Shown: positions 5,445 through 29,007 of the stretch, one piece after another
Numbering within the stretch: position 1 is the first letter of the stretch
How the letters are laid out: each line of letters opens with the position of its first letter
Origin: Bacillota bacterium
Lineage (GTDB): Bacteria; Sysuimicrobiota; Sysuimicrobiia; Sysuimicrobiales; Segetimicrobiaceae
Length of the DNA: 64,000 nucleotides
Direction of reading: 5' to 3'
NCBI GenBank assembly: GCA_021324255.1
Contig: JAJPJL010000128.1
Coordinates: 26,422-90,421, forward strand
Made by a program: the position numbers and the translations under genes
Notes under the pieces: generated by a model
Database searches by the model: none
Told to the model about the DNA's origin: nothing
Seen by the model: only the letters and a program-made list of their open reading frames with translations

Positions 5445-7049
5445 ATGCCGCTGCCCCAGACCCCCGATGACGCGCAGGAAGCGCCGGCGGTGAGTACTCG
5501 ACGCCGGCGCCGTCTGACGCGCTGGCTCGTAGCATCCGCCCTTGCGGCGATCCTGGCGCTCGCCGCGCCGCCGCCCCGGATGGAGCCGCTCGCCTCGGCG
5601 GCGGGCGCTCCGGCGCCCGCGGGCGCGCTCGCCGCGCCCCACCCGGCCGTCACCACCCACTCGATCACGGTCAGGGACACGGTCGTACGGTACACCGCCA
5701 CCGCGGGCGAGGAGCCGTTGACGGACCGCGCGGGCAAGCCCGAGGCCGCCGTCTTCTTCGTCGCCTACGTGAGGCAGGACGCCGCGGACCCCTCGAGGCG
5801 TCCGATCACGTTTGCCTTCAACGGCGGGCCCGGCGCGGCGTCCGTGCTGCTGCACCTCGGCGCGCTCGGGCCCAAGCGGGTGCCGTTGCTGGACCACGGC
5901 GTGCCGCCCACCCCGTCGACCCGCTGGAGCGACAACCCGTACACGTGGCTCACGTTTACGGACCTGGTCTTCGTCGACGCGGTAGGAACGGGGTACAGCC
6001 GCGCGGCGGCTGGCGTGCCGGACTCCACGTTCTTCCAGCCCGACGGCGACGCCCGGTCGTTCGCGCAATTCATTCAGCGGTACATCGCCGAAACGCACCG
6101 GCAAGCGTCGCCCGTGTTTCTCGCGGGCGAGAGCTACGGCGGGACGCGCGCGATCCTCCTCGCGCGGCTCCTGCACGACGCGGGCATCGACGTCAGCGGG
6201 CTGATCCTGATCTCGCCGGTCGTGGATTTCGCAACGCTGAACTCCCAGTACCGCAACCCGGGCCGGAGCATGGATCTGGCGTACGCCCTCGACGTGCCGA
6301 CGTATGCCGCGACCGCCTGGTACCACAAGAAGCTCGGCCCGGAGTTTCCGGATCTCGCCGCCGCCGTGCACGCGGCCGAGCGCTGGGCGGTGACCGAGTA
6401 TCTGCCCGCTCTGGTTCAGGGCGACGCGCTCCCGGCGCCGGCGCAGGAGCGGATCGCCCAGGCGCTGTCGCAATACACCGGCATCGGCGAGGCGGTGCTC
6501 CGCGCGCAACGCCTCCGCCTGCTCCCGACCGCGTTCAGGCGGGAATTGCTGTCCGATCAGCACCTCCAAATCAGCGCGTTGGACGGACGGATCGCCGTTG
6601 ATCCGCGCGCCGCTCACGCCGCGAGCACGACCGGGCTCATGACGCCGCTCGCGGCGATCTTCGAGCGGTACGCAAGCACGGAACTGGGTTACGCACGCCC
6701 AGATCGATACCAGGCCCTGTCCGAGCGGGTCGAGCGCGATTGGACGTGGGGCGTCCGCGGGCCGGCTGATGTCCTCGACGTCACGGGAGATCTGCGCGAC
6801 GCGATGCAGCAGAACCCGGCGATGAAAGTGCTCGTCGCGCTGGGCTACTTCGACCTCACGGTCCCGTACTACGGCACGGAATACGCGCTCAACCGGCTCG
6901 CGCTCGCGCCGGCGCTGGCGGACAATGTGATCCGCCGGTACTACGAGAGCGGGCACATGCTGTACACATCACAGGCGTCGCTGGAGAAGTTTACGGGCGA
7001 CGCGGCGGCCCTGATCGCGAGCGCGACCGCGCCGGCGCACCATCCGTAG
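5445..7049 (+). CDS. S10-family serine carboxypeptidase-like protein (secreted/membrane-anchored)
   Basis: The ATG at 5445 follows GGAG. An N-terminal RRRRLTRWLVASALAAILALAAPPP signal/anchor is present. The GESYGG nucleophile motif and a C-terminal YYESGHMLY His motif are typical of peptidase S10. Confidence 0.75.
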   Translation: MPLPQTPDDAQEAPAVSTRRRRRLTRWLVASALAAILALAAPPPRMEPLASAAGAPAPAGALAAPHPAVTTHSITVRDTVVRYTATAGEEPLTDRAGKPEAAVFFVAYVRQDAADPSRRPITFAFNGGPGAASVLLHLGALGPKRVPLLDHGVPPTPSTRWSDNPYTWLTFTDLVFVDAVGTGYSRAAAGVPDSTFFQPDGDARSFAQFIQRYIAETHRQASPVFLAGESYGGTRAILLARLLHDAGIDVSGLILISPVVDFATLNSQYRNPGRSMDLAYALDVPTYAATAWYHKKLGPEFPDLAAAVHAAERWAVTEYLPALVQGDALPAPAQERIAQALSQYTGIGEAVLRAQRLRLLPTAFRRELLSDQHLQISALDGRIAVDPRAAHAASTTGLMTPLAAIFERYASTELGYARPDRYQALSERVERDWTWGVRGPADVLDVTGDLRDAMQQNPAMKVLVALGYFDLTVPYYGTEYALNRLALAPALADNVIRRYYESGHMLYTSQASLEKFTGDAAALIASATAPAHHP

Positions 7050-9660: not shown

Positions 9661-9896
9661 TCCCGGAAGCCTCCGCTCGTCCACGCCATGCTCCGGCGGC
9701 CGCCCGGCCTGCCGGTCTCCGGCGGCGCGCCAGACCTGTCGCCCGCGCAAGCCCGTAGCTCCTGCGCCGCCTCTGCCTGTCGTTGTCGCGTGTAACGGTG
9801 TCGGGCGGGAAGTCTCCGGCGAGGACCCGGTCGCCGAATTACGAGAGACTACGCCGCGGCGGCCGCGGATGCCTGCCGGTTCCGCGGCAAATTGCG

Positions 9897-10202
9897 CTAG
9901 TGGGTCCGGCCTCGCTTGCGCGGCCCGGCGGACGCAGGATCGGACCGGCCGCGATCCGCGGGCGGCGGCGCGATTGAGGATTGGCCCCCGGACGGGTTCG
10001 CGCCGAGCATCTGGTTTGCCGTCCACACCGCGACCCGGCAGACGACGTCGTGCGGCAACTGGCCCGCGATGCGCGCCGCGCGCCCGTAGCACTGGACCGC
10101 CCAATCCGGCATGCCGAGCGCCCGGAGGCGCTCCAGCGATTCCGCGAACGCGGCGCGGCGCTCGCGGCCAAGGCGTGAGGGGTTGCGGCGTTCTCGCAGC
10201 AT
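9897..10202 (-). CDS. hypothetical small protein (about 101 aa)
   Basis: The minus frame has about 90% third-position GC and a protein-like sequence (AFAESLERLRALGMPDWAVQCYGRAARIAGQLPHDVVCRVAVW). It is the better-coding frame relative to the + ORF 9981..10178. The start is uncertain. Confidence 0.3.
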   Translation of the reverse strand: MLRERRNPSRLGRERRAAFAESLERLRALGMPDWAVQCYGRAARIAGQLPHDVVCRVAVWTANQMLGANPSGGQSSIAPPPADRGRSDPASAGPRKRGRTH

Positions 10203-17213: not shown

Positions 17214-17317
17214 CGAAGGTGTCCTCCTTTCTCGATCCTTTCAGATCTAGGGTCTGATTCTTCTTTGGTACAAGCCGCTTACTATTCACAACCAGACGAT
17301 ACCATGGAGACTTCTTA

Positions 17318-17352
17318 TTGTCAAGACACTTCCCTTCTGTTAGTATGTAACA
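17318..17352 (+). promoter_or_regulatory. sigma70-like promoter for HxlR gene overlapping a face-to-face -35 for the divergent peptide operon; short inverted repeat over the -10
   Basis: On the + strand: TTGTCA, a 17-nt spacer, then TAGTAT. On the - strand: TTGACA (reverse complement of 17319-17324), a 17-nt spacer, then TATCGT. The inverted repeat TGTTA-n5-TAACA spans the + strand -10. The element lies in an AT-rich 175-bp spacer. Confidence 0.45.
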
Positions 17353-17388
17353 GGTAGGCAAAGAAAAATATTCCGAGGAGAAACCGCG

Positions 17389-17727
17389 ATGGACGACGGG
17401 ACGCACATCTGCCCAAAGTTCCACCGCGCCATCGAGTTGATCGGCAAGCGGTGGACGGGCGCCATCATCTGGGCGCTGCTGGACGGGCCGCAACGATTCT
17501 CGGGGCTCCTGGACGTCATTCCCGGCCTGCATGACCGGGTGCTGTCGGAGCGCTTGAAGGAGATGGAAGCCGAGGGCATCGTACGGCGCCAGGTCTATGC
17601 CGAGACGCCGGTCAGGATCGAATATGCCCTCACCGACAAGGGACGGGACCTGCAACGGGTCGTGGCGGAGATGAAGCGGTGGGCGGACCGCTGGCTCCGC
17701 CCGGCCGCGCGCGCCGCGAGAAACTAA
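17389..17727 (+). CDS. HxlR-family winged-helix transcriptional regulator
   Basis: The protein reads CPKFHRAIELIGKRWTGAIIWALLDGPQRFSGLLDVIPGLHDRVLSERLKEMEAEGIVRRQVYAETPVRIEYALTDKGRDL. RBS GAGGAG is present. Confidence 0.85.
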   Translation: MDDGTHICPKFHRAIELIGKRWTGAIIWALLDGPQRFSGLLDVIPGLHDRVLSERLKEMEAEGIVRRQVYAETPVRIEYALTDKGRDLQRVVAEMKRWADRWLRPAARAARN

Positions 17728-18300: not shown

Positions 18301-19041
18301 TCATCCGGCGGCGGCGGGCCCGCGCGCGCGCCCGAACGCGACGCGGGCGAACGTCGCGGTGATGCGCACGCTCGCCGCGAGCGTGCCGCGCAGCGTGCCC
18401 GATACCTTGGACCTCCCGCCCGCGCGGCGGCGGTGGTCCACCGGCACCTCCAGGATGCGGAGCCCCAACGCCGCCGCGCGCATCTGCATCTCGAGGTTCC
18501 AGCCGTACGTCGGCTCCCGCATCCCGAGCCGCTCCAACGCGCCGCGGCGAATGGCGCGGAACGGGCACATGTCGCTGTAGCGCACGCCGTACCGCAGGCG
18601 CACGAGGATGCCGGCGAGGCGCGCCGCGAGCACCTGCGAGCGGCCCATGCTCCCGGCCTCCCGGCGGCCGCGAAGGCGCGAGCCGATGACGAAATCCTGG
18701 TCCCCCGCGAGGATCGGCGCCACGAGCCGGTCCATGAGTTCGGGGCGGTCGCTGCCGTCGCCGTCGAGAAACACGATGACGGCGCACCGCGGGTCCACGG
18801 CGCGGACACCCGCGGCGCAGGCCCGGCCGTAGCCGCGCTGCCGCTCACGCACGACCCGCGCCCCGGCCGTTCGCGCCTGCTCGGCCGTGGCGTCGTCGCT
18901 CCCGTTGTCCACCACGATCACCTCGTCGGCGATCCCCCGCGGGACCGCCCCGACAACCCGCGCGATGGTGTCGGCCTCGTTCAGCGCGGGAATGACCACG
19001 GACACCCAGGCGCCGTGACGCTCCGCCCGCGGACCCGTCAT
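18301..19041 (-). CDS. family 2 glycosyltransferase (Dpm1-like), 'transferase 2, rSAM/selenodomain-associated' type
   Basis: This is the C-terminal 246 codons of the listed 1044-aa ORF. The protein reads VSVVIPALNEADTIARVV...VIVVDNGSDDATAEQAR...FLDGDGSD (DxD). Its start overlaps the epimerase stop by 4 nt. Confidence 0.8.
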   Translation of the reverse strand: MTGPRAERHGAWVSVVIPALNEADTIARVVGAVPRGIADEVIVVDNGSDDATAEQARTAGARVVRERQRGYGRACAAGVRAVDPRCAVIVFLDGDGSDRPELMDRLVAPILAGDQDFVIGSRLRGRREAGSMGRSQVLAARLAGILVRLRYGVRYSDMCPFRAIRRGALERLGMREPTYGWNLEMQMRAAALGLRILEVPVDHRRRAGGRSKVSGTLRGTLAASVRITATFARVAFGRARGPAAAG

Positions 19042-20213
19042 GCGTCGCCCGTGGAGACCGGATCCGCGCGGCCGGGCCCGGCCCCGGCCACACGGTGCAC
19101 GATCCCCTTGGCGCCGAGGATCGCCTCGGCCGCGGCGAAGTAGTCGCGCACGTCGGCCTGCCGCCGGACCCATGCCAGATACCGCTCGAGGCCGGCGGGG
19201 AGACCGGTGCGCGGGGTAAAGCCCGCGGCGCGAGCCCGCGAGATGTCCGCGGTGAGGTGCCGGATCTCGCCCGGGCGGAACTCCCCGCGCAGGACCGGCG
19301 GGATCCGGCGGCCGAGCGCGCCGGCGAGCGCCTCGTAGAGGTCGTGGATGGCGGTCGCCGTCCCGCTGCCGACGTTGACCGGCACCCCGTCCCACGCCGA
19401 GGTCGTGGCGGCGAGCAGGTTGGCCTCGGCGATATCCTCCACGAAACAAAAGTCGCGCGTCTGCGCGCCGTCCTCGTAGATCACGGCGGGACGGCCGTTG
19501 AGCAGGCGCGTGCAGAAGATCGCGATGACCCCGGTGTACGGGTTGAACAGCGACTGCCGGGGCCCGTAGGTGCACGAGTACCGCAGGGCGACCGCGGGGA
19601 TGCCGGTCTGCTCGGCCCACGACAGGACGAGGCGTTCCTGCGCCACCTTGCTGATGGCATAGGGGGTCGCGCCGCACAACGGCGCGTCCTCGCCCGTCGG
19701 CACCGAGACCGTCCGCCCGCGGCAGCGCGGACAGTGGACCGTGAAGTCGCCGGCCCGCAACTGCGCCACCGGCCGCACCGGGGGATAGACCGTCCCATGC
19801 ACCGGGCAGGCGACCGCGCCCTCGGCGTACACCACCTGGGAGGACGCCACGATGACCTTGCGGACCGGCAACCGTTCGTCCCGGATCAGCTCCAAAAGCA
19901 GCGCCGTGCCGACGACGTTGACGTCGGCGTACTTCGCGATCTCCGGCATGAACCCGCCGTACGCCGCCTGGTGAAACACCACGTCGATGTCGCGGAGCGC
20001 CGCCAGCACGAGCGCGCGGTCCCGGATGTCTCCCTCCACGAACTCGGCGGCATCCGGCACCCACGCGGGCCGGCCGTGCCGGTGGGTCTGCGGCTCGAGA
20101 CGATCGAGGACGCGAACGCGCCACCCGTCTTGCAGCAGCCGGTCGACGATGTGCGACCCGATCAACCCCGCGCCGCCCGTGACGAGCGCGCGCCGCCCCA
20201 CCCGTTCCCCCAT
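19038..20213 (-). CDS. NAD-dependent epimerase/dehydratase (extended SDR)
   Basis: The Rossmann motif VTGGAGLIGSHIV is present. The catalytic YxxxK reads TPYAISK. Confidence 0.85.
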   Translation of the reverse strand: MGERVGRRALVTGGAGLIGSHIVDRLLQDGWRVRVLDRLEPQTHRHGRPAWVPDAAEFVEGDIRDRALVLAALRDIDVVFHQAAYGGFMPEIAKYADVNVVGTALLLELIRDERLPVRKVIVASSQVVYAEGAVACPVHGTVYPPVRPVAQLRAGDFTVHCPRCRGRTVSVPTGEDAPLCGATPYAISKVAQERLVLSWAEQTGIPAVALRYSCTYGPRQSLFNPYTGVIAIFCTRLLNGRPAVIYEDGAQTRDFCFVEDIAEANLLAATTSAWDGVPVNVGSGTATAIHDLYEALAGALGRRIPPVLRGEFRPGEIRHLTADISRARAAGFTPRTGLPAGLERYLAWVRRQADVRDYFAAAEAILGAKGIVHRVAGAGPGRADPVSTGDA

Positions 20214-21617
20214 TCACGTCTCCCTTCGAAGCACCGGCGATCCCGGGCGCCGGCGGTGTGCGGCCCGCAGCGCGCCGCGCCGCAGGCGCCCCCGGATCTC
20301 CGCCCCGAATCGCTCCGCGAGCGCCAAGCCCGCCGTCGGGCCATAGAGCGCGATATCGAACGCCAGCATCTCGTCGTTGATGCCGAACCACGGCCGGTAC
20401 CACAACGCCGAGAAGAGCCACAGGGCTGCGCCGGTCATGTAGAGGAGCGCGATCCGCGGCGTGAAACAGGCGAGCGCCACGAGCCATCCGAAGTACCAGA
20501 GGTAGTGCGTCGACAGGAGCACGAGGAACGCGGCGGCGACCGTGGCGCCGTAGCCGAGGTCGCCGAGCGCCGTCCGGCGCTCGGTGCGCCAGACACGATA
20601 CGCGAGCAGGAACAGCATGAGCAGCGCCGCGCCGGCATACGCCGCGACGGGCGCGGCCACGCCTGCCAGCCGGGCCAGCGTCAGGCCGAGGAACCGGTCG
20701 CCGGTGACGATGCCTTCCTCCGCGGCGTAGCCCGGCAGAAACCCGATCACCCCGGTCCCGACGCCGAGATACGGCAGATACCCGGCCGCGACGGTCGCCG
20801 CCAGCGCCGCCGGCATCTTCCATGTGCCGCGCCGGTAAAATGCGAGCACGAGGAGGGCGGGATACAGTTTCACCAGCGTGGCGCAGCCGAGCGCGATACC
20901 GGTGAGGCTCTCCCGGCGGCGCAGGTGCGCCAGCACCGCCACGAGGATGAAGGTGATCGCCGCGGCGTCGATGTGACCGTCCCCCGCGTACTGCCACAGG
21001 ACCAACGGATGCCAGGCGTACAGCAAGACGCGCTCCCGCGGCAGGCCGGCCAGGCCGAGCGTGAGGCACAACAGCCACACGGTCCCGCCCTCGAACGCGA
21101 CCACCGCCGCCTTCATCGCCGTCACCGTCTGGCTGACCCGCGTCACCGCGAGGAAGATCGCCTGCGCCGCCGGCGGGTAGATCGTGTGCGCGTAGTCCCG
21201 CCGGCTGACGTGCGGGTAGATCGCCGCGTCGCGCAGCCCGGCGAGCGCCGGATCCGCCGGCACGTACCGGTATGGATTGACGCCGGCGCCCTGCACGCGC
21301 CCGTCCCAAATGTACCGGTAGATGTCCGCGGAAAACTTCGGCGGGCTCAGAACAAGCGGGATGCGGCACAGGAGCGCGACGAGCAGGATCACGGTGAGGC
21401 CGCCTCTGGCGACCCGCCCGGTGAGGACCATCCACGCCGCGCCGCCGAACAACAGCGTCTGTGCGAGCGCCAGGGTCCGCACGGCGAAGATATCGGGGAT
21501 GTGCGCGCGCTCGCCGTAGACGTACGACGCCACCGTGAGCGCGCCGAGACCCGCGAGCACCGCGGTCCCGGCGGCCGGCCGCACCCCGTTACCGCGGAAG
21601 GCCGGCGCGATCGCCAC
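20214..21617 (-). CDS. polytopic membrane glycosyltransferase-like protein (DUF2029/GT87-like, GT-C fold candidate)
   Basis: There are about 11 predicted TM helices and an Arg-rich cytoplasmic tail. The stop abuts the epimerase start. The GTG start at 21617 overlaps the upstream gene by 29 nt; an alternative GTG lies at 21584. Confidence 0.55.
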   Translation of the reverse strand: MAIAPAFRGNGVRPAAGTAVLAGLGALTVASYVYGERAHIPDIFAVRTLALAQTLLFGGAAWMVLTGRVARGGLTVILLVALLCRIPLVLSPPKFSADIYRYIWDGRVQGAGVNPYRYVPADPALAGLRDAAIYPHVSRRDYAHTIYPPAAQAIFLAVTRVSQTVTAMKAAVVAFEGGTVWLLCLTLGLAGLPRERVLLYAWHPLVLWQYAGDGHIDAAAITFILVAVLAHLRRRESLTGIALGCATLVKLYPALLVLAFYRRGTWKMPAALAATVAAGYLPYLGVGTGVIGFLPGYAAEEGIVTGDRFLGLTLARLAGVAAPVAAYAGAALLMLFLLAYRVWRTERRTALGDLGYGATVAAAFLVLLSTHYLWYFGWLVALACFTPRIALLYMTGAALWLFSALWYRPWFGINDEMLAFDIALYGPTAGLALAERFGAEIRGRLRRGALRAAHRRRPGSPVLRRET

Positions 21618-22404
21618 GACGCTCGCCGGTCACGGATGGCGGCGCCCAGATGCGTTCCCGCGCGTGCGCGAGCAGCTGCGAGAGATACCGGCGGGTGTGG
21701 GGTGCCGGAGATCCCCGGCCCCCGTGCCCGTCGAAGCACTCCCGGCACAGGCGGCGCAGGCTCGGCGCATCGTCGACGTCATACCACCTCGGCAGGACCT
21801 CGACCCGCACGCCGGCCTCGGCGGCGCGCGCGAGCGTTTGCGCGAATACGGCCTCCGTCCCCCACGCGATGCCGGCAAACAGCCGCGGGTCCGGCGCCGT
21901 CATGCCGATCAGGTAGTAGCCGCCGTCGTCCGCGGGACCGATGACCACGCAGTCGGGATCGCGCGCCAGCAGCCCCGCCGCTTCCGTGAACACCGCCGGG
22001 GACAGGGTCGGGCTGTCGGAGCCGACCAGGCAAAGGGCGGCGTACCCGGCGTCCCGCAAGTCCGCCGCCGCGCCATACAATCGCTCGCCGAGCGTGCCGC
22101 CGCGCTGGAGAACCCGATGGAACTCGGGGGGCACGAGCGCGTCGAATACCGCCTCGCTCCCGGCCGGTGTGTACACCACCGCCCCCTCGCATGCCCCGGC
22201 GGCGCACGCCGCCGTGATGGCGGCTGCGGTATCGCGAAGAAAGCACGCGTGGAGCGCGGCGGCCTCGGCCGGCGATAGCGGCGGCGTCAGTCGGGTCTTG
22301 ACGCGCCCGGGGAGCGGCGCTTTGGTCATGATCCCGATCGCACACCGGCCGGGGTGGGACGACCCCGGGCGACCCGCGGGGCGGCGCCGCATGCCGCTTG
22401 TCAT
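21589..22404 (-). CDS. DUF2064 / CofC-MobA-like nucleotidyltransferase-fold protein ('transferase 1, rSAM/selenodomain-associated' type)
   Basis: The conserved N-terminus reads AIGIMTKAPLPGRVKTRL, followed later by LVGSDSPTLSP and DDGGYYLIG. The start ATG overlaps the cupin stop (ATGA). Confidence 0.75.
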   Translation of the reverse strand: MTSGMRRRPAGRPGSSHPGRCAIGIMTKAPLPGRVKTRLTPPLSPAEAAALHACFLRDTAAAITAACAAGACEGAVVYTPAGSEAVFDALVPPEFHRVLQRGGTLGERLYGAAADLRDAGYAALCLVGSDSPTLSPAVFTEAAGLLARDPDCVVIGPADDGGYYLIGMTAPDPRLFAGIAWGTEAVFAQTLARAAEAGVRVEVLPRWYDVDDAPSLRRLCRECFDGHGGRGSPAPHTRRYLSQLLAHARERIWAPPSVTGERRGDRAGLPR

Positions 22405-22817
22405 TTGACCACGGTCGTCTCGTCGGCGCCCTTGGGAATCAACTCGGCCGCCGAGATGCGGGCGGGGCTCGCGCTCCGGTTGATGAGGGCGTGCACGTCC
22501 CCGGGCACCTCGAGGAAGCTCTCGCCGGTCTTGATGACGCGTTCGCCGCCGCCGCGCTGCAGCACGAGCTGGCCGGACACGACGGTCACCACCACGGGGC
22601 CGCCGTGCACGTGCCGCGGCGTCGCGCTGCCGGGCGGGAAATCCACGACGAAGTCGTAGAGATCGTAGTCGCCGGCCGTCACGGACACGGGGAACGCGGC
22701 CACGGTCACCGTCCGGGGCGACGCGCCCGGAGCGGCGGCCCGCACGGTCTCGATCACGGAACCGGCGAGCAACGCGCCCAGCGCCGCCGCCAGCACATAC
22801 CATCGCCGGACTGGCAT
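22401..22817 (-). CDS. secreted cupin-domain protein
   Basis: A signal peptide (MPVRRWYVLAAALGALLAGSVIETVRA) is present. The cupin motifs read PGSATPRHVHGGPVVVTVVSGQL and GESFLEVPGDVHAL. Confidence 0.65.
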   Translation of the reverse strand: MPVRRWYVLAAALGALLAGSVIETVRAAAPGASPRTVTVAAFPVSVTAGDYDLYDFVVDFPPGSATPRHVHGGPVVVTVVSGQLVLQRGGGERVIKTGESFLEVPGDVHALINRSASPARISAAELIPKGADETTVVK

Positions 22818-22874
22818 CTCGCTCCTCCTCTCGCACGTCCCGCGCGTTGCCGTGCGGCCGGGCGCGGCCGGCGC

Positions 22875-23939
22875 TTAGCGGGCGCCCTCGCGGGCCATCA
22901 CGACCGTCGTGCAGGAACTGCTCAGCTTCGGCAGGTCGCGCGCGCCGGCGGATCGCACCGCGAGCCGTATCCGGTCGCCGCGCACGATCGGGCAGTACAT
23001 GTCGGGGGCATCCAGCGCACCCTGCAACCGCCGGCGCCCGGCGCACCCGCCGTGACAGGCCGCGCGGTGCTCGCACGCTTGACAGGCCTCGGGGAGCGCG
23101 CGCGCCTGTGCGAACGGCTCGGTGTTCACGATGTCGCGCCCCAGGCGCAGGCCCTCGCGGAGCGGCTCGCCGGGCCCCGGCCAGTAGACGCACGGCTGTG
23201 TCGTGCCGCGCGGGGTGACCCGCACCGTGCTCACGCCGCATCCGCCCGCCGGCGCCGGGAGCCCGGCCATGGCGCGCACCAACGGCTCGCCGATCGCGAT
23301 GACGTCCGTCTCCGCAAACAGCGCCCGAAACCCGTCCCAGTACTCCTCGTACGTCAGCGCATACGCGTCGGAGCGCACGGCTTGGTACACATTCACCCGC
23401 AGGGGCGCACGGAACTTGGCGGCGACGCGCGCCACCTCCGCGAGGCGGCGATAGTTGGACTTCATCATCACCGCGACGATGGTCACGGGCACGCCGGCGC
23501 GCACGCAGCGCGCCGCCTGCTCGTGGATCAGGGCCCAGTTGCCGGCGCCCCGCTGCGCGTCCTGTTCGTCCGCCGTCGGATAATCGAGCGAGAACTCGAC
23601 GTCGTGAAAGGCGCGCAGCTCCGCGTCCGAGAGCACGGCCACGCTGTAGCCGTTTGAGGTGATCGTCAGTTTGACCGGCTGAGCGCGCAGGTACGCGAGG
23701 ATGGCCCTGAAGTCGGGGTGCAGCCCGTTCTCGCCCGTGCCCAAGTTGACCGACTGTACGGGGAGCCGCGCCATCACGGCCCGGACCTGATCCAGCGTGA
23801 GCCGGTCCACGCGCGCCGGATCCCGGTAGCAGAATGCGCACGCCAAGTTGCACTCGTTCGTCAGGCCGAGTCCCAGCGCCACCCCGGGCGGGGCCGTGCG
23901 CGCCTCCGATGCCGGCGCGGGGGCGCGGGTGTCGGACAT
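22875..23939 (-). CDS. radical SAM enzyme with Cys-rich C-terminal (SPASM/selenodomain-like) domain
   Basis: The ATG at 23939 follows GGAGG. The radical SAM cluster motif CNLACAFC (CxxxCxxC) is present. The C-terminal Cys cluster reads CQACEHRAACHGGCAG...MYCP. There is no in-frame TGA, and the gene ends with TAA. Confidence 0.75.
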   Translation of the reverse strand: MSDTRAPAPASEARTAPPGVALGLGLTNECNLACAFCYRDPARVDRLTLDQVRAVMARLPVQSVNLGTGENGLHPDFRAILAYLRAQPVKLTITSNGYSVAVLSDAELRAFHDVEFSLDYPTADEQDAQRGAGNWALIHEQAARCVRAGVPVTIVAVMMKSNYRRLAEVARVAAKFRAPLRVNVYQAVRSDAYALTYEEYWDGFRALFAETDVIAIGEPLVRAMAGLPAPAGGCGVSTVRVTPRGTTQPCVYWPGPGEPLREGLRLGRDIVNTEPFAQARALPEACQACEHRAACHGGCAGRRRLQGALDAPDMYCPIVRGDRIRLAVRSAGARDLPKLSSSCTTVVMAREGAR

Positions 23940-24093
23940 CACACGCCTCCGTTCTCGCGGGCCCGGGCACGGGGCCTCGCCGGCACGTGCGTGTAGCGCG
24001 CGAGCGCCGAAACCCCGGCGCGCATGCCCAGCGCCTGTTCGCATGCCACCACGCGCGCGTCCCCCGCGCGCCCCACCGTGCGACGCTCCGCGG

Positions 24094-24729
24094 TCACGAC
24101 AAGAGCCTCAGCACGCGCCCCCACGCCGTGTCCCGCGCCCGATCCGCATGCCGCAGCAAGATCGCGTCGATCCCCAGGCTGCGACCCGGCCGGGAGAGCA
24201 TGAACAGGAGCTGGATGACGATCAGGAACACGTATGTCCAGGGCCACTCGTACGGGTCGCGGTACAGACCCAACCACAGGTTCAGCGCCGCCAGGAGCCC
24301 GAGCACCGCGCCGAGCCGGCTGAACAGCCCGACAATGAGCAAGACCGCGATGAGGACTTCCCCGAGGTAGACTTGCGGGGCAAACACGTAGAAGTGCGGT
24401 TGCACCACGTGTTTGATGAAGTCCCGATGCCCGCCGAACGCCGCATACTGCGCCATCTGGCCAACCCAAAAGCGGAGCCCGCCGGACCCGTCCGGACGAT
24501 CGGTGTACGTCGGCGGGAGCTTCCACAGCGTCTGCGTCCACCACATCGTGCCCACGGCGAAGCGCGCGACCCACGTCCAAAATCGCCGGCCGGAGCGCTG
24601 ATCGGGATCGCGGCGCCAATTGGCCCAGGCCGCGATCACGCTCACGATGACGAGAATCCAGAACACGCCCGTGGTCCACCGTGGCTGCGTCAGGAATCCG
24701 ACCGCGTCGGCGAACGGCGTGGTCCGCAC
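24094..24729 (-). CDS. DoxX-family membrane protein
   Basis: Four TM helices and Trp-rich loops give a DoxX/DoxD-like topology. The start is 13 nt downstream of the permease stop. Confidence 0.65.
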   Translation of the reverse strand: MRTTPFADAVGFLTQPRWTTGVFWILVIVSVIAAWANWRRDPDQRSGRRFWTWVARFAVGTMWWTQTLWKLPPTYTDRPDGSGGLRFWVGQMAQYAAFGGHRDFIKHVVQPHFYVFAPQVYLGEVLIAVLLIVGLFSRLGAVLGLLAALNLWLGLYRDPYEWPWTYVFLIVIQLLFMLSRPGRSLGIDAILLRHADRARDTAWGRVLRLLS

Positions 24730-24741
24730 GGATGCCCGGCC

Positions 24742-25824
24742 TCAGAACCGGAGGAGCTGGGCGGCGACCCCGGCGACCAGCCCGAGACACGCCACCGACG
24801 CCGCGGTCAGGGCCAAGACCCGGACCGGCAGCACACGCCCCATCATCACGAGCGAGGGCAGGCTCACCGGGGCGAGCGTGGTCAACAGGACCGCCGCCCC
24901 GCCCGGGCCGAGCCCAAAGGACATCAGCGTCTGAACGATGGGAACCTCCCCGGCCGTCGGGATGACAAACACCGTGCCGGCGACGGCCAGCAGCGGCAGC
25001 ACGAGAGCGCTATGCCCGATCGCGGGGGTCACCGCGGGGAACATCCACCCCCGCACCGCCCCGAGCGCGAGGACGACGATCACGTATTCGGGAACGAGCC
25101 CCGAGCAGAGCTGCCACAGGGCCCGCCCCCAGCGGCGCACCAGCGACCGGGCATCGTAGGCCTCGGGCGCCCGTCCGGCCGGCGTCGCGGCCGGCGGCGT
25201 CACGGCCACGGCCCGCTCGGCGAGATACGCGGCGCCCAGGACGAGCACGACGCCGGCGGCGACGCGGAGCGCGACCCAACGCCACCCGAGCACGAACCCC
25301 ATGAAAATCATGGTCGCGGGATTGAGGGTGGGATTGCCGAGCCAGTACGCGACGGTGGCGCCGGGGGATGCGCGGCTGGCCCGGAGTCCGACCGCGACCG
25401 GCGCGGCGCAGCAGGTGCACATCATCGACGGCACCGACGCGCCGCCGGCGAGCACCGTACTCAGCCACCCCGCCTTGCCGAGCGCCCGCGCCGGCCATTC
25501 GCGCGGCAGCAGGACCTGCACGGCCGAGCCCACCAGCAGGCCGAGCACCATCGCCTGCCAGATGGCGCCGAAGTACGCGACCGTGAACGACCACGCCGCC
25601 GGCCATCCGACCGCCGGGGGCGCCGCTCCCGAGCCGGTGATGATCGAGGGGCCGATGCTGTGCCGCGCGATGGCGGTGAACGTTTTGTGAACGTACGGGC
25701 TCCACTTGACGTAGTACAAGCCCGCAACGGTCATGATGAAGAACAGAGCGATGGCCCACGGCATCAGGCGCATGCCCGCCGCCGGGATGCCCTCGTCCCG
25801 TTCAACAGCCACCGACTGGCCCAC
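24742..25824 (-). CDS. DUF318/ArsP-like permease with Cys-rich TM motif
   Basis: The GTG start follows GAGGTGACGCAC. It is a polytopic membrane protein. An MMCTCCAAP motif sits in the position of the CxC motif of ArsP/YraQ-type permeases. Confidence 0.65.
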   Translation of the reverse strand: MGQSVAVERDEGIPAAGMRLMPWAIALFFIMTVAGLYYVKWSPYVHKTFTAIARHSIGPSIITGSGAAPPAVGWPAAWSFTVAYFGAIWQAMVLGLLVGSAVQVLLPREWPARALGKAGWLSTVLAGGASVPSMMCTCCAAPVAVGLRASRASPGATVAYWLGNPTLNPATMIFMGFVLGWRWVALRVAAGVVLVLGAAYLAERAVAVTPPAATPAGRAPEAYDARSLVRRWGRALWQLCSGLVPEYVIVVLALGAVRGWMFPAVTPAIGHSALVLPLLAVAGTVFVIPTAGEVPIVQTLMSFGLGPGGAAVLLTTLAPVSLPSLVMMGRVLPVRVLALTAASVACLGLVAGVAAQLLRF

Positions 25825-25946
25825 CGTGCGTCACCTCAGTCCGACGTAGCGCGTCGTTGCGCCCATTCGTTTCCATAGGGATCGCGCCCGCCAACCCCCG
25901 GGCCCGGAGCATCCGGCGGCGCGGGCATGCGGCTGTGCTCCCCGCG

Positions 25947-25985
25947 CCACTGTACGTGGCCCCTGTAAAGGAATGTTAAAGGTCT
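25947..25985 (-). promoter_or_regulatory. conserved upstream cis-element copy 1 (CTTTAAC-n3-CCTTTACA-n8-GTACAGTG on gene strand)
   Basis: The top strand reads CCACTGTAC-gtggcccc-TGTAAAGG-aat-GTTAAAG. It lies 120-160 nt upstream of the permease start. A near-identical element recurs at 27905-27945. Confidence 0.45.
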
Positions 25986-26034
25986 CGCGACGGTCTCACG
26001 ATGGTGCCGCGGGCGCGGCGGCCGCGCGAGCGCA

Positions 26035-27816
26035 TCAATCGCGCCGTGCAAGGCGGACGTAATACGGCGTCGCACCGACACGGCGCCACCCCCGGGGAAC
26101 GTGGCCCGGCGGGACGTCCTCGGTGACGATGGCCCTGACGCCGGCCGACGCGAGCGCGCGGAGCGTCCGGCGCTGCGCGCCGGGGGGCGCTGTCCAAAAG
26201 GCCCGCACCGCCTCGTCGGGCACCTCGGCGACCACGCGCACTCGAGCCAGCCTCGCCCAGTAGTCGGGGAACGCCGTGCCGATCACCGCCACGGCGTCGC
26301 CCCCCCGGACCCCCATGGCGCGCAGGCCGGCGGCGACCTGCGCCGGCGCAGGCTGCGCCGGGGCGGCAATGCTGCGGAGCGACTCGAGACCGCGGCTCAG
26401 GAGCATGACCAGCGCGACCGTCACGAAGGCGCCCGCCACCGCGCGCACACCCGCGATGGTTCGCCCCCCTGCGGGGAGCCGCACCGCAGATAGCAGGCCC
26501 GCCCAGAGCAACACCATGAACAAGGCGACAAAGCGAGGCTCGACGTAGACGCAGATCAGCCCGGCCAGCCCGAGGCAGGCGAGCAGCAGGATCCCCCACA
26601 CGCGGGCCAGGCTCCGGACGAACCCCCGCGCCGATCCGCTCACCACCGCCCACCAGCACAGGGTAAGCATGACGAGGGTCGCGGCCCCATTGGTGACCAG
26701 CGCGATATGCGAGAGCCTCGTGAGGTTGACGGCGATCGTCGCGGCCACCTGGCCGGGCACGAAGCACGGTTCGATCCCGTCGTACCAATACGCGGGCGCG
26801 TACCACAGCGGATACGTGGTGCGAAAGGGCCCGGCAAACTCGTACACCGCGGGCGCGGCGGCGATGCGGCGGACCGGGTGCCTCGGCGCGCCGCAGGCGG
26901 GCGGTCCGCCTCGCCAGTGCACGTAGGGCACGCCGTCGACGTGGTAGGCGTAATTGAGGACCGCCGTGTCTCCCGCCGTCAGATGGCCCTCGTGCACGGA
27001 CAGCGCGACGATGAACGGCGCGGCGATCGCGACAAACACCGCGATGCCGAGCAACGCGGCGCGCTTCGCCGCGGGCTCGTGCGACACGGCCCACAGCGCC
27101 CCGAGGAGCACGACGGCCAGGGGCAGGATGAGCGCCCGGCTCAAGTAGCCCACAGCCAGCACGGCCCCGAGCGCGGGCAGGCGCCACGCGTCGGGTTTCA
27201 GGCCCTCGGGCCGGACCAACAAGGCCGCCGCAGCGTAGACGAGCGCGGCCGTCAGCAGGTCGGGCGCGACGACGGCGACGCCGGTGGCCACGAGCGATGC
27301 GGAGATGAACACCGGATACCCGATCGCAAACCAGGCCCACCGCGGCAGCGGCGCGAGGCCGTCGGCGCCGGGATGCCGCGCGTCCCGCTCGCTCCGCGCC
27401 AGCAGCGTGCGCAGGAAGGCGTCGAAGGAGAACAGCGCGGCCGCGTAGATCGCGAAGTTGACCGCGTGCACCACCGGGAACTCCCAGAAGAGACCCGGGC
27501 GCGCCGCGCGCAGGACGCCGCCGAGGAGCACGCCGTAGAGCGGGCTCCACAAGCCGTTCAGGGCGGTGTGCCAGTCGCCCCGCCAGAAGGCGTCGCCCAT
27601 GTCCAGGTAGGAGATGCCGTCCGGATTCATCGCGTTGCGCGACGCGACGGCGTCGAGGAATCCCAGGACCAGCCCCAGGGCAAGCAACAGCCGGCGCAGC
27701 GCCGTGGCGCGGGTCCGGGCCAGCGGGATGACCGGCGCGTCGGCGGCGGACTGCGGTCGCGGGATCTCCGCCCGGACGAGCGTGCCCCGGGTCGACCGCC
27801 CGTGTCGTCGCGCCGT
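26035..27816 (-). CDS. GT-C fold membrane glycosyltransferase (PMT/ArnT-like, family 39/83 candidate)
   Basis: It has about 11 TM helices; the N-terminal TM (LRRLLLALGLVLGFLDAV) is followed by an ISYLDMGDAFW loop. The C-terminal soluble domain is about 150 aa. The start is uncertain. I favour the GTG at 27816 over the ORF start at 28047, because the conserved upstream motif at 27905-27945 would otherwise be intragenic. Confidence 0.55.
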   Translation of the reverse strand, partial: TARRHGRSTRGTLVRAEIPRPQSAADAPVIPLARTRATALRRLLLALGLVLGFLDAVASRNAMNPDGISYLDMGDAFWRGDWHTALNGLWSPLYGVLLGGVLRAARPGLFWEFPVVHAVNFAIYAAALFSFDAFLRTLLARSERDARHPGADGLAPLPRWAWFAIGYPVFISASLVATGVAVVAPDLLTAALVYAAAALLVRPEGLKPDAWRLPALGAVLAVGYLSRALILPLAVVLLGALWAVSHEPAAKRAALLGIAVFVAIAAPFIVALSVHEGHLTAGDTAVLNYAYHVDGVPYVHWRGGPPACGAPRHPVRRIAAAPAVYEFAGPFRTTYPLWYAPAYWYDGIEPCFVPGQVAATIAVNLTRLSHIALVTNGAATLVMLTLCWWAVVSGSARGFVRSLARVWGILLLACLGLAGLICVYVEPRFVALFMVLLWAGLLSAVRLPAGGRTIAGVRAVAGAFVTVALVMLLSRGLESLRSIAAPAQPAPAQVAAGLRAMGVRGGDAVAVIGTAFPDYWARLARVRVVAEVPDEAVRAFWTAPPGAQRRTLRALASAGVRAIVTEDVPPGHVPRGWRRVGATPYYVRLARRD

Positions 27817-27904
27817 CACCGCTCGTTCGGATGCGTCATGGTGCACGAGACGGGAATCGTCCCTCCGGGGAGTCTCCGCTGCAATGTCGTGGCGCAGTGG
27901 CACT

Positions 27905-27945
27905 GTACCGATCGGTTGTAAAGGTTGGTTAAAGAACACCGCCCG
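27905..27945 (-). promoter_or_regulatory. conserved upstream cis-element copy 2
   Basis: The top strand reads GCACTGTAC-cgatcggt-TGTAAAGG-ttg-GTTAAAG, with the same spacing (8 and 3) as copy 1. Confidence 0.45.
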
Positions 27946-28092
27946 CGTCGAGATGGAGCTCCGCAAGGCGCCGACCGAGATCGAGCATCGTGACCGTTCG
28001 ACGGGGTGAAGACGGGCGGGCCGCCGGCGAGGCCGGTGCGGTCTCACGCGTCGGGCCGTGGTCGAGGATTCGTGTTCGCCGCCGGCGCAGGC

Positions 28093-29007
28093 TCACACCG
28101 GCCCGAGACCGCGCAGGCGCGGATCCAGGACATCCCGGATGCGGTCGCCCAGCAGGTTGAAGGCGAGGACGACCAGGGTGATGACGACCCCGGGAATCGT
28201 CGGCATCCACCAGGCTTGCCACACCAAGTCCTGCGCCTGCCCGATCATCTGGCCGAGGCTTGGCGTCGGCGGTTGGATGCCGAGGCCGAGGAAACTCAGC
28301 GCGGCCTCGAAGACGATCACCACCGGCAGATGGAGGGTGCCGAGCACGAGCACCGTGGGGAGCACGTTGGGCAGCACGTGCCGCGCGAGAATGCGGGCGT
28401 CGGATGCGCCCACCGCGCGGGCTGCGGCCGCAAACTCGCGCTCCCGCAACGCCAGGGCCTCGGCGCGCACCACGCGCGCATAGCCGGGCCACCCGGCGAT
28501 CACCAGCACGGCGATGATTTGCAGCAGCCCGGTGCCGAGTACCGCCACCACGGCCACGGCGAGCAGCAACGTGGGGACGGACAGCTGAGCGTCCACGAGG
28601 CGCATCAACGCGACGTCGAGCCACCCGCCGCGGTAGCCGGTCACCATCCCGATCCCAAGGCCGAGGGCCGTGGACAGCGGGACCACCGCGAGCGCCACCC
28701 CGAGCGAGATGCGCAGGCCGACCAGCAACCTGCTCAGCACATCGCGGCCCAACTGATCCGTGCCGAGCAGGTGGACGCCCCCCGCGACGGGGACGAGCGA
28801 CGGCGGATGCACCGGGATGCCGAGATTCTGCGCGGCCGGATCGTACGGCGTCACGAACGACGCGCCGAACCCGGCCGCCAGCAGAACGGCCAGCAGCGCG
28901 GCGCCGACAGCGCCCGACGGGCTCCGCAGGAGGCGGAGCAGCGTCGAGGCGCGCCCGTCGCTACGCGCCCTGTGCGGCGCCGCGAAGACGAGGGTCGACC
29001 CAGCCAT
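28093..29007 (-). CDS. peptide/nickel ABC transporter permease (DppC/OppC-like)
   Basis: Typical N-terminus (RSPSGAVGAALLAVLLAAGF). The EAA-like loop reads AARAVGASDARILARHVLPNVLPTVLVL. The C-terminal DPRLRG motif is present. Confidence 0.8.
   Translation of the reverse strand: MAGSTLVFAAPHRARSDGRASTLLRLLRSPSGAVGAALLAVLLAAGFGASFVTPYDPAAQNLGIPVHPPSLVPVAGGVHLLGTDQLGRDVLSRLLVGLRISLGVALAVVPLSTALGLGIGMVTGYRGGWLDVALMRLVDAQLSVPTLLLAVAVVAVLGTGLLQIIAVLVIAGWPGYARVVRAEALALREREFAAAARAVGASDARILARHVLPNVLPTVLVLGTLHLPVVIVFEAALSFLGLGIQPPTPSLGQMIGQAQDLVWQAWWMPTIPGVVITLVVLAFNLLGDRIRDVLDPRLRGLGPV

Follow-up and report, generated by a model that had tools for sequence, protein, structure and literature searches.

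The 34-base motif that occurs twice in the stretch of DNA analysed here (the window, 64,000 nucleotides) is most likely a conserved promoter in which the absent −35 box has been substituted by two direct protein-binding half-sites, placed at a fixed distance from the −10 hexamer. To the more specific proposal, that a sigma-70-type −10 is combined with two half-sites phased at 11 bp and bound by a winged-helix activator of the OmpR/PhoB type, we give roughly even odds (about 0.5). Most likely, the motif represents a bacterial gene switch of an ordinary type and reveals no new regulatory principle.

The Two Motif Copies and Their Downstream Genes

The window comes from an uncultured high-GC soil bacterium (Bacillota). 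The pattern CACTGTAC-N8-TGTAAAGG-N3-GTTAAAG has two exact matches on the plus strand of the 64 kb scanned, at 25948-25981 and 27901-27934. An earlier note on this DNA had claimed two occurrences with identical spacing, and the exact matches bear this out; the ranges it gave (25947-25985 and 27905-27945) deviate by a few bases. On the gene (minus) strand, the motif reads CTTTAAC-N4-CTTTACA-N9-TAnnnT, and both copies are intergenic and face minus-strand genes.

The repeated motif is non-random and block-conserved. The copies are identical at all 23 specified bases and share 1 of 11 spacer bases, giving 24 of 34 positions in total. No further match with up to three mismatches was found in the 64 kb, no weaker site in the window exceeds background, and none of 100 dinucleotide-preserving shuffles contained the motif. 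The 18-base core alone has two matches, both being the two motif sites, where 0.08 would be expected. Since the two copies show no similarity outside the 34 nt and share so few spacer bases, they represent conserved blocks, not a recent duplication.

Site 1 (25948..25981, minus strand), a putative composite promoter element, is an exact pattern match, CTTTAAC ATTC CTTTACA GGGGCCAC G TACAGT G, and is conserved upstream of ArsP_1 orthologs. Its distal half-site, CTTTAAC (25975..25981), and its proximal half-site, CTTTACA (25964..25970), stand in an 11-bp register, and both correspond to invariant columns of a five-lineage alignment (A1). The putative −10 hexamer, TACAGT (25949..25954), lies 9 nt downstream of the proximal half-site, and in it T1, A2, and T6 alone are invariant. 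The site is located between the stop of the GT-C gene (26035) and the start of an ArsP_1-family permease gene (25824), 123 nt upstream of the permease operon. The operon (18301..25824, minus strand), assigned by Pfam and NCBIfam matches, synteny with locus L005, and tblastn mapping, encodes the permease, DoxD, a methyltransferase remnant, a SPASM radical SAM protein, and a cupin, followed by DUF2064, GT87/MptA_B, SDR epimerase/dehydratase, and GT2 proteins. A STAS gene (anti-sigma-factor antagonist) closes the cluster, both in the window and in L005.

Site 2 (27901..27934, minus strand), CTTTAAC CAAC CTTTACA ACCGATCG G TACAGT G, is likewise an exact match and is conserved in L005 at 9704-9737. 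Its putative elements, all on the minus strand, are the distal half-site CTTTAAC (27928..27934), in which a remnant DivIVA-like reading frame has its TAA stop, the proximal half-site CTTTACA (27917..27923), and the −10 hexamer TACAGT (27902..27907). It lies between the stop of an OppC-like gene (28093) and the start of the GT-C gene (27819), 81 nt upstream of the latter. The GT-C gene (26035..27819, minus strand) encodes a GT-C-like membrane glycosyltransferase of 594 aa with a GTG start at 27819. It had been argued from the motif's position that this gene starts at or after about 27816 rather than at 28047. This argument holds: the translation from 27819 is identical to a 594-aa database protein (P0001), and homologs, annotated as ArnT-like or PMT_2, are 522-732 aa long with query coverages of 53-100%, mostly 86-100%. 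The same gene call is made in L001.

Conservation in Related Lineages

Six other lineages (L005, L007, L143, L147, L148, and L087) have the motif geometry upstream of their permease orthologs, the proteins being 62-87% identical. In the alignment of five permease upstream regions, the sole invariant columns are CTTTAAC, CTTTACA, and positions T1, A2, and T6 of the third block, while the 4-nt spacer between the heptamers varies. The third-block hexamers are TACAGT in the window, TAGACT in L007, TACGCT in L143, TATTCT in L147, and TACCGT in L148. The loci of L143, L147, L148, and L007 were reached through protein homology with the DNA unconstrained, and the 7-4-7-9-TAnnnT geometry is present in them. 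The L055, L087, and L142 sites were found with a pattern in which the spacing and the bases GTA were fixed; in L055, the motif precedes a DsbD_TM/CcdA-like gene and in L142 a collagen-like surface-protein gene. In a scan for the architecture, 190 kb of related loci gave 12 sites, against none in 30 Markov controls.

Both window sites are kept in a relative of 86% identity, in which the spacers have diverged, as has the DNA upstream of the motif. This upholds the idea of a cis-regulatory element shared by two transcription units. Other lineages have a single copy, located between the DoxD and permease genes, and no GT-C gene. The permease ortholog of L144 has a canonical TTGCAC-N17-TACGCT promoter where the other orthologs have the repeats. 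The L009 motif, with TAGAGC as its third block, faces away from the GT-C gene. A second site in L048 was rejected as an artefact, since the contig is palindromic and error-laden. Matches to the strict pattern in other genomes are chance matches in unrelated taxa.

A Probable Promoter Without a −35 Box

Since just T1, A2, and T6 of the third block are kept across lineages, GTACAGTG is best read as a −10 hexamer (TACAGT, in general form TAnnnT) and not as another half-site. All 12 sites have a 9-nt gap between the proximal half-site and TAnnnT. A −35 box is absent: a scan of 25600-28300 for sigma-70 consensus promoters found none, and the hexamers at 16-18 nt before TAnnnT agree with TTGACA at about one position in six. 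Canonical promoters do exist in this organism, for TTGTCA-N17-TAGTAT and TTGACA-N17-TATCGT lie upstream of the HxlR gene.

The blocks of the motif themselves do not supply the missing element. Relative to TACAGT, TTTACA is at 9 nt and TTTAAC at 20 nt, whereas a canonical sigma-70 promoter needs 16-18 nt. The suggestion in the earlier note that TTTACA could be an unusual −35 fails as well, because TAnnnT is found 16-18 nt downstream of it at no site; the hexamers 17 nt downstream are, for example, CGCGGG, CACTGC, and GGCTTG. If TTTAAC were the −35 of a MerR-type promoter, the 20-nt spacing to TAnnnT would be present, but the dyad is lacking, since the spacer contains a direct-repeat unit plus 8 nt without conservation across sites. 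Fits to the SigE/SigK, SigD, and ECF consensus sequences mismatch in spacings or key bases, and LytTR-type 9-bp repeats 21 bp apart would leave the middle block unexplained.

The Half-Sites as Proposed Binding Sites for an Activator

We propose that each copy is the core of a −35-less promoter for the primary (sigma-70-type) RNA polymerase. Ending 9 bp before the −10, the proximal half-site would take the place of the −35. The repeats form two half-sites with a period of 11 bp, within the 10-11 bp expected for such promoters; their heptamers are conserved and the spacer between them varies, and the proximal one stands where a −35 would be, a short and constant way from the putative sigma-70-type −10. 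An OmpR/PhoB-type winged-helix activator, perhaps a response regulator or a SARP-like protein, would most likely bind the half-sites as a head-to-tail dimer and recruit polymerase through sigma region 4 (class II activation). One factor may thus co-regulate the GT-C gene and the operon that extends from the permease and radical SAM genes to GT87, the epimerase, and GT2. In related organisms, the same factor might also govern the CcdA-like gene, for membrane thiol transfer, and the gene for the collagen-like surface protein, and these genes taken together suggest an envelope or surface regulon.

The observation that the half-sites are direct and one helical turn apart, in the manner of OmpR/PhoB-type sites, agrees with our analysis. 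Of the proposal of an OmpR/PhoB-type regulator, the part that stands is the repeat geometry, as the corresponding gene was found neither in the window nor in the related loci: tblastn with PhoB and PhoP detected no Trans_reg_C/OmpR-type regulator gene there. Among 38 ORFs scanned against Pfam (30 of the window and 8 of related loci), HxlR, a RodZ-like HTH, and STAS were the only regulators of the window, with a NarL type in L005; the regulators near the cluster are of the HxlR, ArsR, and NarL types. Because an OmpR/PhoB-type gene was not found nearby, we infer the identity of the regulator from the geometry. It counts against the activator model that there are just two half-sites and that they are invariantly unlike (CTTTAAC and CTTTACA), which is unusual for a homodimer. 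The lack of a nearby regulator gene, the direction and third block of the L009 copy, and the way in which the L055, L087, and L142 sites were found weigh against it as well.

Comparison with Known Systems

Operators of the PhoB/PhoP family consist of 11-nt units with seven conserved and four variable positions, with a minimum of two units, near the −35 (PMC2275107). The Pho boxes of E. coli PhoB, Streptomyces PhoP, and B. subtilis PhoP resemble our motif in these 7 + 4 direct-repeat units and in their position near or replacing the −35, and the proximal TTTACA fits the B. subtilis PhoP sequence TT(A/T/C)ACA exactly. In PhoP-activated genes, the hexamer reportedly lies on the coding strand, as it does in the motif, and the pho box is said to lie about 10 bp upstream of the −10, the distance here being 9 bp. 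Unlike Pho boxes, however, the motif has just two repeats, its CTTTAAC deviates invariantly, and the downstream genes are not phosphate-related. PhoP/PhoR genes were not found in the window or the relevant loci.

WalR, which governs cell-envelope genes in Firmicutes (PMC4168254, PMC9210968), has the consensus TGTWAH-N5-TGTWAH (PMC4168254). The complement of the motif, TGTAAA-N5-(G/C)TTAAA, has the same 11-bp register and matches the WalR/VicR (YycF) box at 10 of 12 positions. The first half-site, TGTAAA, is exact, but the second is invariantly GTTAAA or CTTAAA, 4 of 6, and never has TG at positions 1-2, and a WalR/VicR box was rejected on this ground. In addition, the motif differs from the WalR box in replacing the −35 and in an orientation opposite to the gene, and autolysin-type genes of the WalR regulon are not seen downstream.

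SARP sites are heptameric direct repeats with 4-nt spacers; the resulting 11-bp units share one face of the helix, and they overlap the −35 of the target promoters (PMC5930380, PMC10972967). The motif likewise has heptamers and 4-nt spacers in 11-bp units, but the SARP example heptamers have a high GC content and are often arranged in groups of three. SARPs are found mainly in actinobacteria, and their genes usually lie in the cluster they control, whereas a SARP gene is absent from the cluster here.

A possible parallel is the PmrA (BasR) box of enterobacteria, a CTTAAT-like repeat with an 11-bp period at the −35 of the arnT/lipid A modification operon, among whose products are an ArnT-type GT-C transferase, a GT2 polyprenyl-phosphate sugar transferase, and a sugar-nucleotide dehydratase/epimerase. 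The gene content of that operon is analogous to that of the present cluster; the phylum and the half-site sequence differ.

Alternative Explanations

The direct repeats could serve as the operator for a repressor, of the winged-helix or another type, which blocks polymerase on a −35-independent promoter. We regard this as unlikely, though it is the strongest of the alternatives. A position directly upstream of the −10 is one where repressors act too, and WalR-type sites that overlap promoters can repress, as in the B. subtilis WalR regulon. However, in every lineage the repeats keep the same register relative to the −10, exact to the base; a stereospecific contact with polymerase would call for this, whereas occlusion would not. 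These promoters also lack a −35 although canonical −35 boxes occur in the genome. As for candidate proteins, repressor genes of the HxlR and ArsR types adjoin the cluster, but such proteins bind palindromes, and the HxlR gene has a palindrome of its own at 17338-17354.

Somewhat less credible is the possibility that an alternative sigma factor uses the whole 34 bp as its promoter, the upstream element being unusual or bipartite; the candidates are a partner-switching (STAS-controlled), a sporulation, or a surface-layer sigma of this Bacillota lineage. The STAS gene at the cluster end would suit the first of these, and CTTTAA resembles the SigB-type −35, GTTTAA. The SigB/SigF (partner-switching) consensus is GTTTAA-N12-14-GGGTAT, but in the motif CTTTAA is 18 nt and CTTTAC 7 nt from nnGTAC, and GGGTAT is absent; with these spacings and no conservation of GGGTAT, a SigB/SigF-type promoter was rejected. 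The collagen-like protein, glycosyltransferases, sugar epimerase, and CcdA recall late-sporulation surface regulons, but the CATA of SigE/SigK is absent, and an AAC...CGT arrangement would have a spacing of 17-19 nt with CGT unconserved. Moreover, the T1-A2-T6 pattern is that of a housekeeping −10, the same hexamer is paired in L144 with TTGCAC at 17 nt, and a single sigma has no need of two equal-length heptamers in an 11-bp register.

Just as doubtful is a surface or envelope regulon that is specific to one uncultured high-GC clade of Bacillota and is driven by an undescribed factor and not by an ordinary response regulator. The driver could, for example, be a sigma factor whose upstream element has two parts, or a programme of the sporulation or exosporium type. 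The regulon would then comprise the GT-C/GT87/GT2 glycosylation genes, the permease-DoxD-SPASM radical SAM module, and the CcdA-like and collagen-like genes. Such a factor would explain the invariantly different heptamers and the absence of a nearby OmpR-type gene.

A conserved signal in the 5′ leader RNA, not acting as DNA, is very improbable: untranslated stretches of 81 and 123 nt do follow the copies, but Rfam has no hit at E ≤ 1, the folding of the leaders is not better than that of shuffles (z −0.9 to +1.8), and the motif has no internal complementarity, with blocks and variable spacers typical of protein-DNA sites. That the two direct copies, which bracket the GT-C gene 1953 bp apart, are a MITE or other dispersed repeat (the outcome that the earlier note had named as fatal to its own proposal), or a recent local duplication, is hardly credible, given that similarity ends at the 34 nt, that a single copy occurs elsewhere without the GT-C gene, and that a related species' genome holds just the two orthologous copies.

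Implications

Returning to the activator-dependent promoter, the analysis offers a precise model for an uncharacterised envelope-glycosylation and radical-SAM cluster, with a −10, two half-sites, and transcription predicted to start near 25942 and 27895, and it corrects the start of the GT-C gene. CTTTAAC-N4-CTTTACA can serve as a specific DNA bait for finding the regulator. Through the motif, the cluster is also linked to the CcdA-like and collagen-like surface genes of related organisms. The regulon may be very small, since in a related MAG the strict pattern matches just two sites, both orthologous to those of the window.

Two copies of a composite motif

The composite motif is real. The pattern CACTGTAC-N8-TGTAAAGG-N3-GTTAAAG has exactly two matches on the plus strand of the window, at 25948-25981 (site 1) and 27901-27934 (site 2); the earlier note, which had described two copies with conserved blocks, was right about their presence and a few bases off in their coordinates. 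Allowing up to three mismatches yields no further match in the window, none of 100 dinucleotide-preserving shuffles contains one, and an 18-base core finds the same two places against 0.08 expected. The copies are identical at all 23 specified positions and at only one of 11 spacer positions, and their likeness ends at the 34-nt borders, so they are conserved blocks, neither a recent duplication nor a piece of a longer repeat. The gene-strand sequence of each is CTTTAAC-N4-CTTTACA-N8-G-TACAGT-G. From the end of site 1 it is 123 nt to the start of a permease gene, which has a GAGGTG ribosome-binding site in front of it; from the end of site 2 it is 81 nt to the start of a GT-C gene.

A putative −10 element in the third block

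In the third-block hexamer, T1, A2 and T6 alone are kept across lineages, whereas the inner bases vary. It is these three positions that count when a primary sigma factor recognises a −10 element, and we consider it likely that the third block serves as the −10 of a genuine promoter. The permease ortholog of the related locus L144 lacks the repeats and has TTGCAC-N17-TACGCT instead (5964-6024), beside a divergent LysR-family gene; this is a canonical promoter with the same type of hexamer as the motif sites. Regulation of the permease gene has apparently been rewired in that lineage.

A scan of 25600-28300 found no consensus promoter, and TACAGT has nothing resembling TTGACA 16-18 nt ahead of it. 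Canonical promoters do occur elsewhere in the window, upstream of an HxlR gene (TTGTCA-N17-TAGTAT and TTGACA-N17-TATCGT). It had been suggested that TTTACA is an unusual −35; we reject this, since only 9 nt separate its end from the hexamer and none of the sites has a TAnnnT-like sequence 17 nt downstream of TTTACA. The original reading should therefore be amended in two ways: the third block is probably the −10, and TTTACA should not be counted as a −35.

The heptamers as candidate activator sites

The two heptamers are direct 7-nt repeats with a variable 4-nt spacer between them; at a period of 11 bp, they share one face of the helix. Both are invariant across lineages, and the earlier note's proposal of OmpR/PhoB-like half-sites one helical turn apart was largely right. 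They differ from each other invariantly (CTTTAAC versus CTTTACA), which is odd for a homodimer. The proximal heptamer occupies the expected place of a −35, and its distance to the −10 does not vary by a single base between lineages. We propose that the heptamers bind an activator (probability roughly 0.6). Each site would then be an activator-dependent class II promoter, at which the activator on the heptamers would touch polymerase.

It is conceivable, though unlikely, that the heptamers are instead a repressor operator, which would leave both the fixed register and the absent −35 unexplained; so strict a register argues for a polymerase-touching activator and against a simple repressor. Slightly less likely still is that the 34-bp motif is the promoter of an alternative sigma factor, in keeping with the STAS anti-sigma-antagonist gene (minus strand) and a gene set that is surface- or sporulation-like. 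However, the spacings match no SigB/F, SigE/K, SigD or ECF consensus form, and the L144 promoter points to the primary sigma factor.

Promoters activated by OmpR/PhoB-fold winged-helix proteins have this same layout of heptamers and −10, and the odds that the predicted activator has such a fold are about even. The B. subtilis PhoP hexamer is TT(A/T/C)ACA on the coding strand, which the proximal TTTACA fits, and in E. coli the pho box and the −10 are about 10 bp apart. An arnT operon under the control of the PmrA box has a gene content analogous to that of the cluster here. PhoP/PhoB operators consist of 11-nt units with seven conserved positions, at least two of them, adjoining or replacing the −35 (PMC2275107), and SARP heptamers, which are spaced by 4 nt, overlap the −35 (PMC5930380, PMC10972967); the motif has the same 7-nt repeats and 4-nt spacer at the −35 place. 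The Firmicute WalR consensus is TGTWAH-N5-TGTWAH (PMC4168254), and the complement of the motif is TGTAAA-N5-GTTAAA. No OmpR-type regulator gene was found in the window or any related locus; the regulators nearby are of other types, namely HxlR (with its own palindrome), ArsR and, in L005 (an 86%-identity relative deposited as 'Bacillota bacterium Centralia_MAG_233'), a NarL-type response regulator. Promoters of this kind are already well known; this occurrence is in an uncultured lineage, and the principle is unsurprising. The motif is nevertheless a useful entry point to an envelope gene cluster that is uncharacterised.

Genes around the sites and the site 2 leader

All genes across the site region lie on the minus strand. 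The ArsP_1-family permease gene (25824-24742) forms an operon with DoxD, a methyltransferase remnant, a SPASM radical SAM protein, a cupin, DUF2064, GT87/MptA_B, an SDR sugar epimerase/dehydratase and GT2, and the STAS gene belongs to the same stretch. The remnant (23942-24079, minus strand), called as a 52-aa ORF between DoxD and the radical SAM gene, is only a 46-aa C-terminal piece; L005 (287 aa) and the related locus L007 (285 aa) have the full SAM-dependent methyltransferase gene.

The GT-C-like membrane glycosyltransferase gene starts at GTG 27819 and not at 28047, which the earlier note had argued against, because a database protein has the very same 594-aa sequence as its translation and because homologs of 522-732 aa cover 53-100% of the query, mostly 86-100%. 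Upstream, 27932-28092 (minus strand) is the remnant 3′ end of a DivIVA-like gene, sharing 13 of 19 residues with the C-terminal end of the L005 protein and with its TAA stop within the distal heptamer of site 2. An Opp-type ABC transporter cluster, whose permease gene ends at 28093, takes the place of the rest of that gene.

The leader downstream of site 2, at 27816-27880 (minus strand), and its counterpart at 9760-9810 in L005 are conserved at the nucleotide level (GGAGAC..CGGAGGGACGATyCCCGTCTCGTGC.CCATGACGCATCCG) with a 1-nt indel, and the leader is therefore non-coding. In the window, it holds a 7-codon upstream ORF (27839-27816) whose TGA overlaps the GTG start. That the motif is an RNA element is very improbable: an Rfam search gave no match, and folding found no structure in the leaders, with nothing significant in the conserved segment of site 2 either. 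In L005, three tandem units of about 60 bp (9800-10010), absent from the window, separate site 2 from the called GT-C start.

Conservation across lineages

L005 keeps both sites with different spacers, so that the idea of a cis-regulatory motif shared by the two units was largely right. Upstream of its site 2 lies a gene other than that in the window, DivIVA-like, with its TAA stop within the distal heptamer. In L007 (61-68% identity), the permease and GT-C operons are divergent, and the permease site reads CTTTAAC GATT CTTTACA GGTGCTGT G TAGACT. Permease orthologs found purely by protein homology have the same geometry, with the hexamers TACGCT (L143), TATTCT (L147) and TACCGT (L148). When five permease upstream regions are aligned, the sole invariant run is CTTTAAC, CTTTACA and T-A-n-n-n-T.

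A looser pattern scan of metagenomes, in which most matches listed were chance ones in AT-rich DNA, added at least three sites: between DoxD and the permease gene (L087), upstream of a DsbD_TM/CcdA-like gene (L055) and upstream of a gene for a collagen-like (GXY repeat) surface protein (L142). Hexamer position 6, which the pattern left free, is T in all three. An architecture scan requiring at least 11 of 14 half-site matches and TAnnnT at a fixed offset gave 12 sites across 190 kb of related loci, against none in 30 Markov controls, and none in the window besides the two. The strict pattern had ten matches in 185,579 species genomes, of which only two, orthologous sites in the Centralia MAG, are relevant; the other eight, in unrelated taxa, are about the chance number. 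Least probable of all is that the copies are a MITE or a duplication, since their likeness ends at 34 nt and the two relevant, orthologous copies exclude the larger dispersed repeat that the earlier note had named as a refutation.

Other occurrences deserve mention. L009 has a motif at 1492-1525, 134 nt ahead of the GT-C ortholog but on the opposite strand, and L041 and L139 share its sequence; in L009 and L041 it faces away from the GT-C gene, TAGAGC replaces TAnnnT, and no convincing ORF follows on the strand of the motif. This copy may be a relic in decay, or may work in both directions. Weaker variants with the same 7-4-7-9-TAnnnT geometry, such as CTTTATA CAAT CATCACA ... TACACT and a CGTGACA ... 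TACCGT form, lie directly downstream of the GT-C gene, before the next genes (L007 7988-8021, L041 10681-10714, L149 ~3410-3445), and the same regulator may bind them with low affinity. One more site, CTTTACG AGAT CTTCACA CAATCGGG C TACCCT (L148 103-136, minus strand), faces the contig end, away from DoxD. The 'second site' of L048, with a 10-bp repeat spacing, was rejected as an assembly artefact, the contig ends being inverted copies with 93% identity and many indels; L142 is the cleaner version.

The HxlR intergenic region

The AT-rich intergenic stretch at 17296-17354, upstream of the HxlR-family gene (17389-17727, plus strand), contains two overlapping divergent canonical promoters, that with TTGTCA on the plus strand and that with TTGACA on the minus strand, each with TG. 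The plus-strand −10 is covered by a perfect palindrome, CTGTTA-N5-TAACAG (17338-17354), which is probably the HxlR autoregulatory operator.
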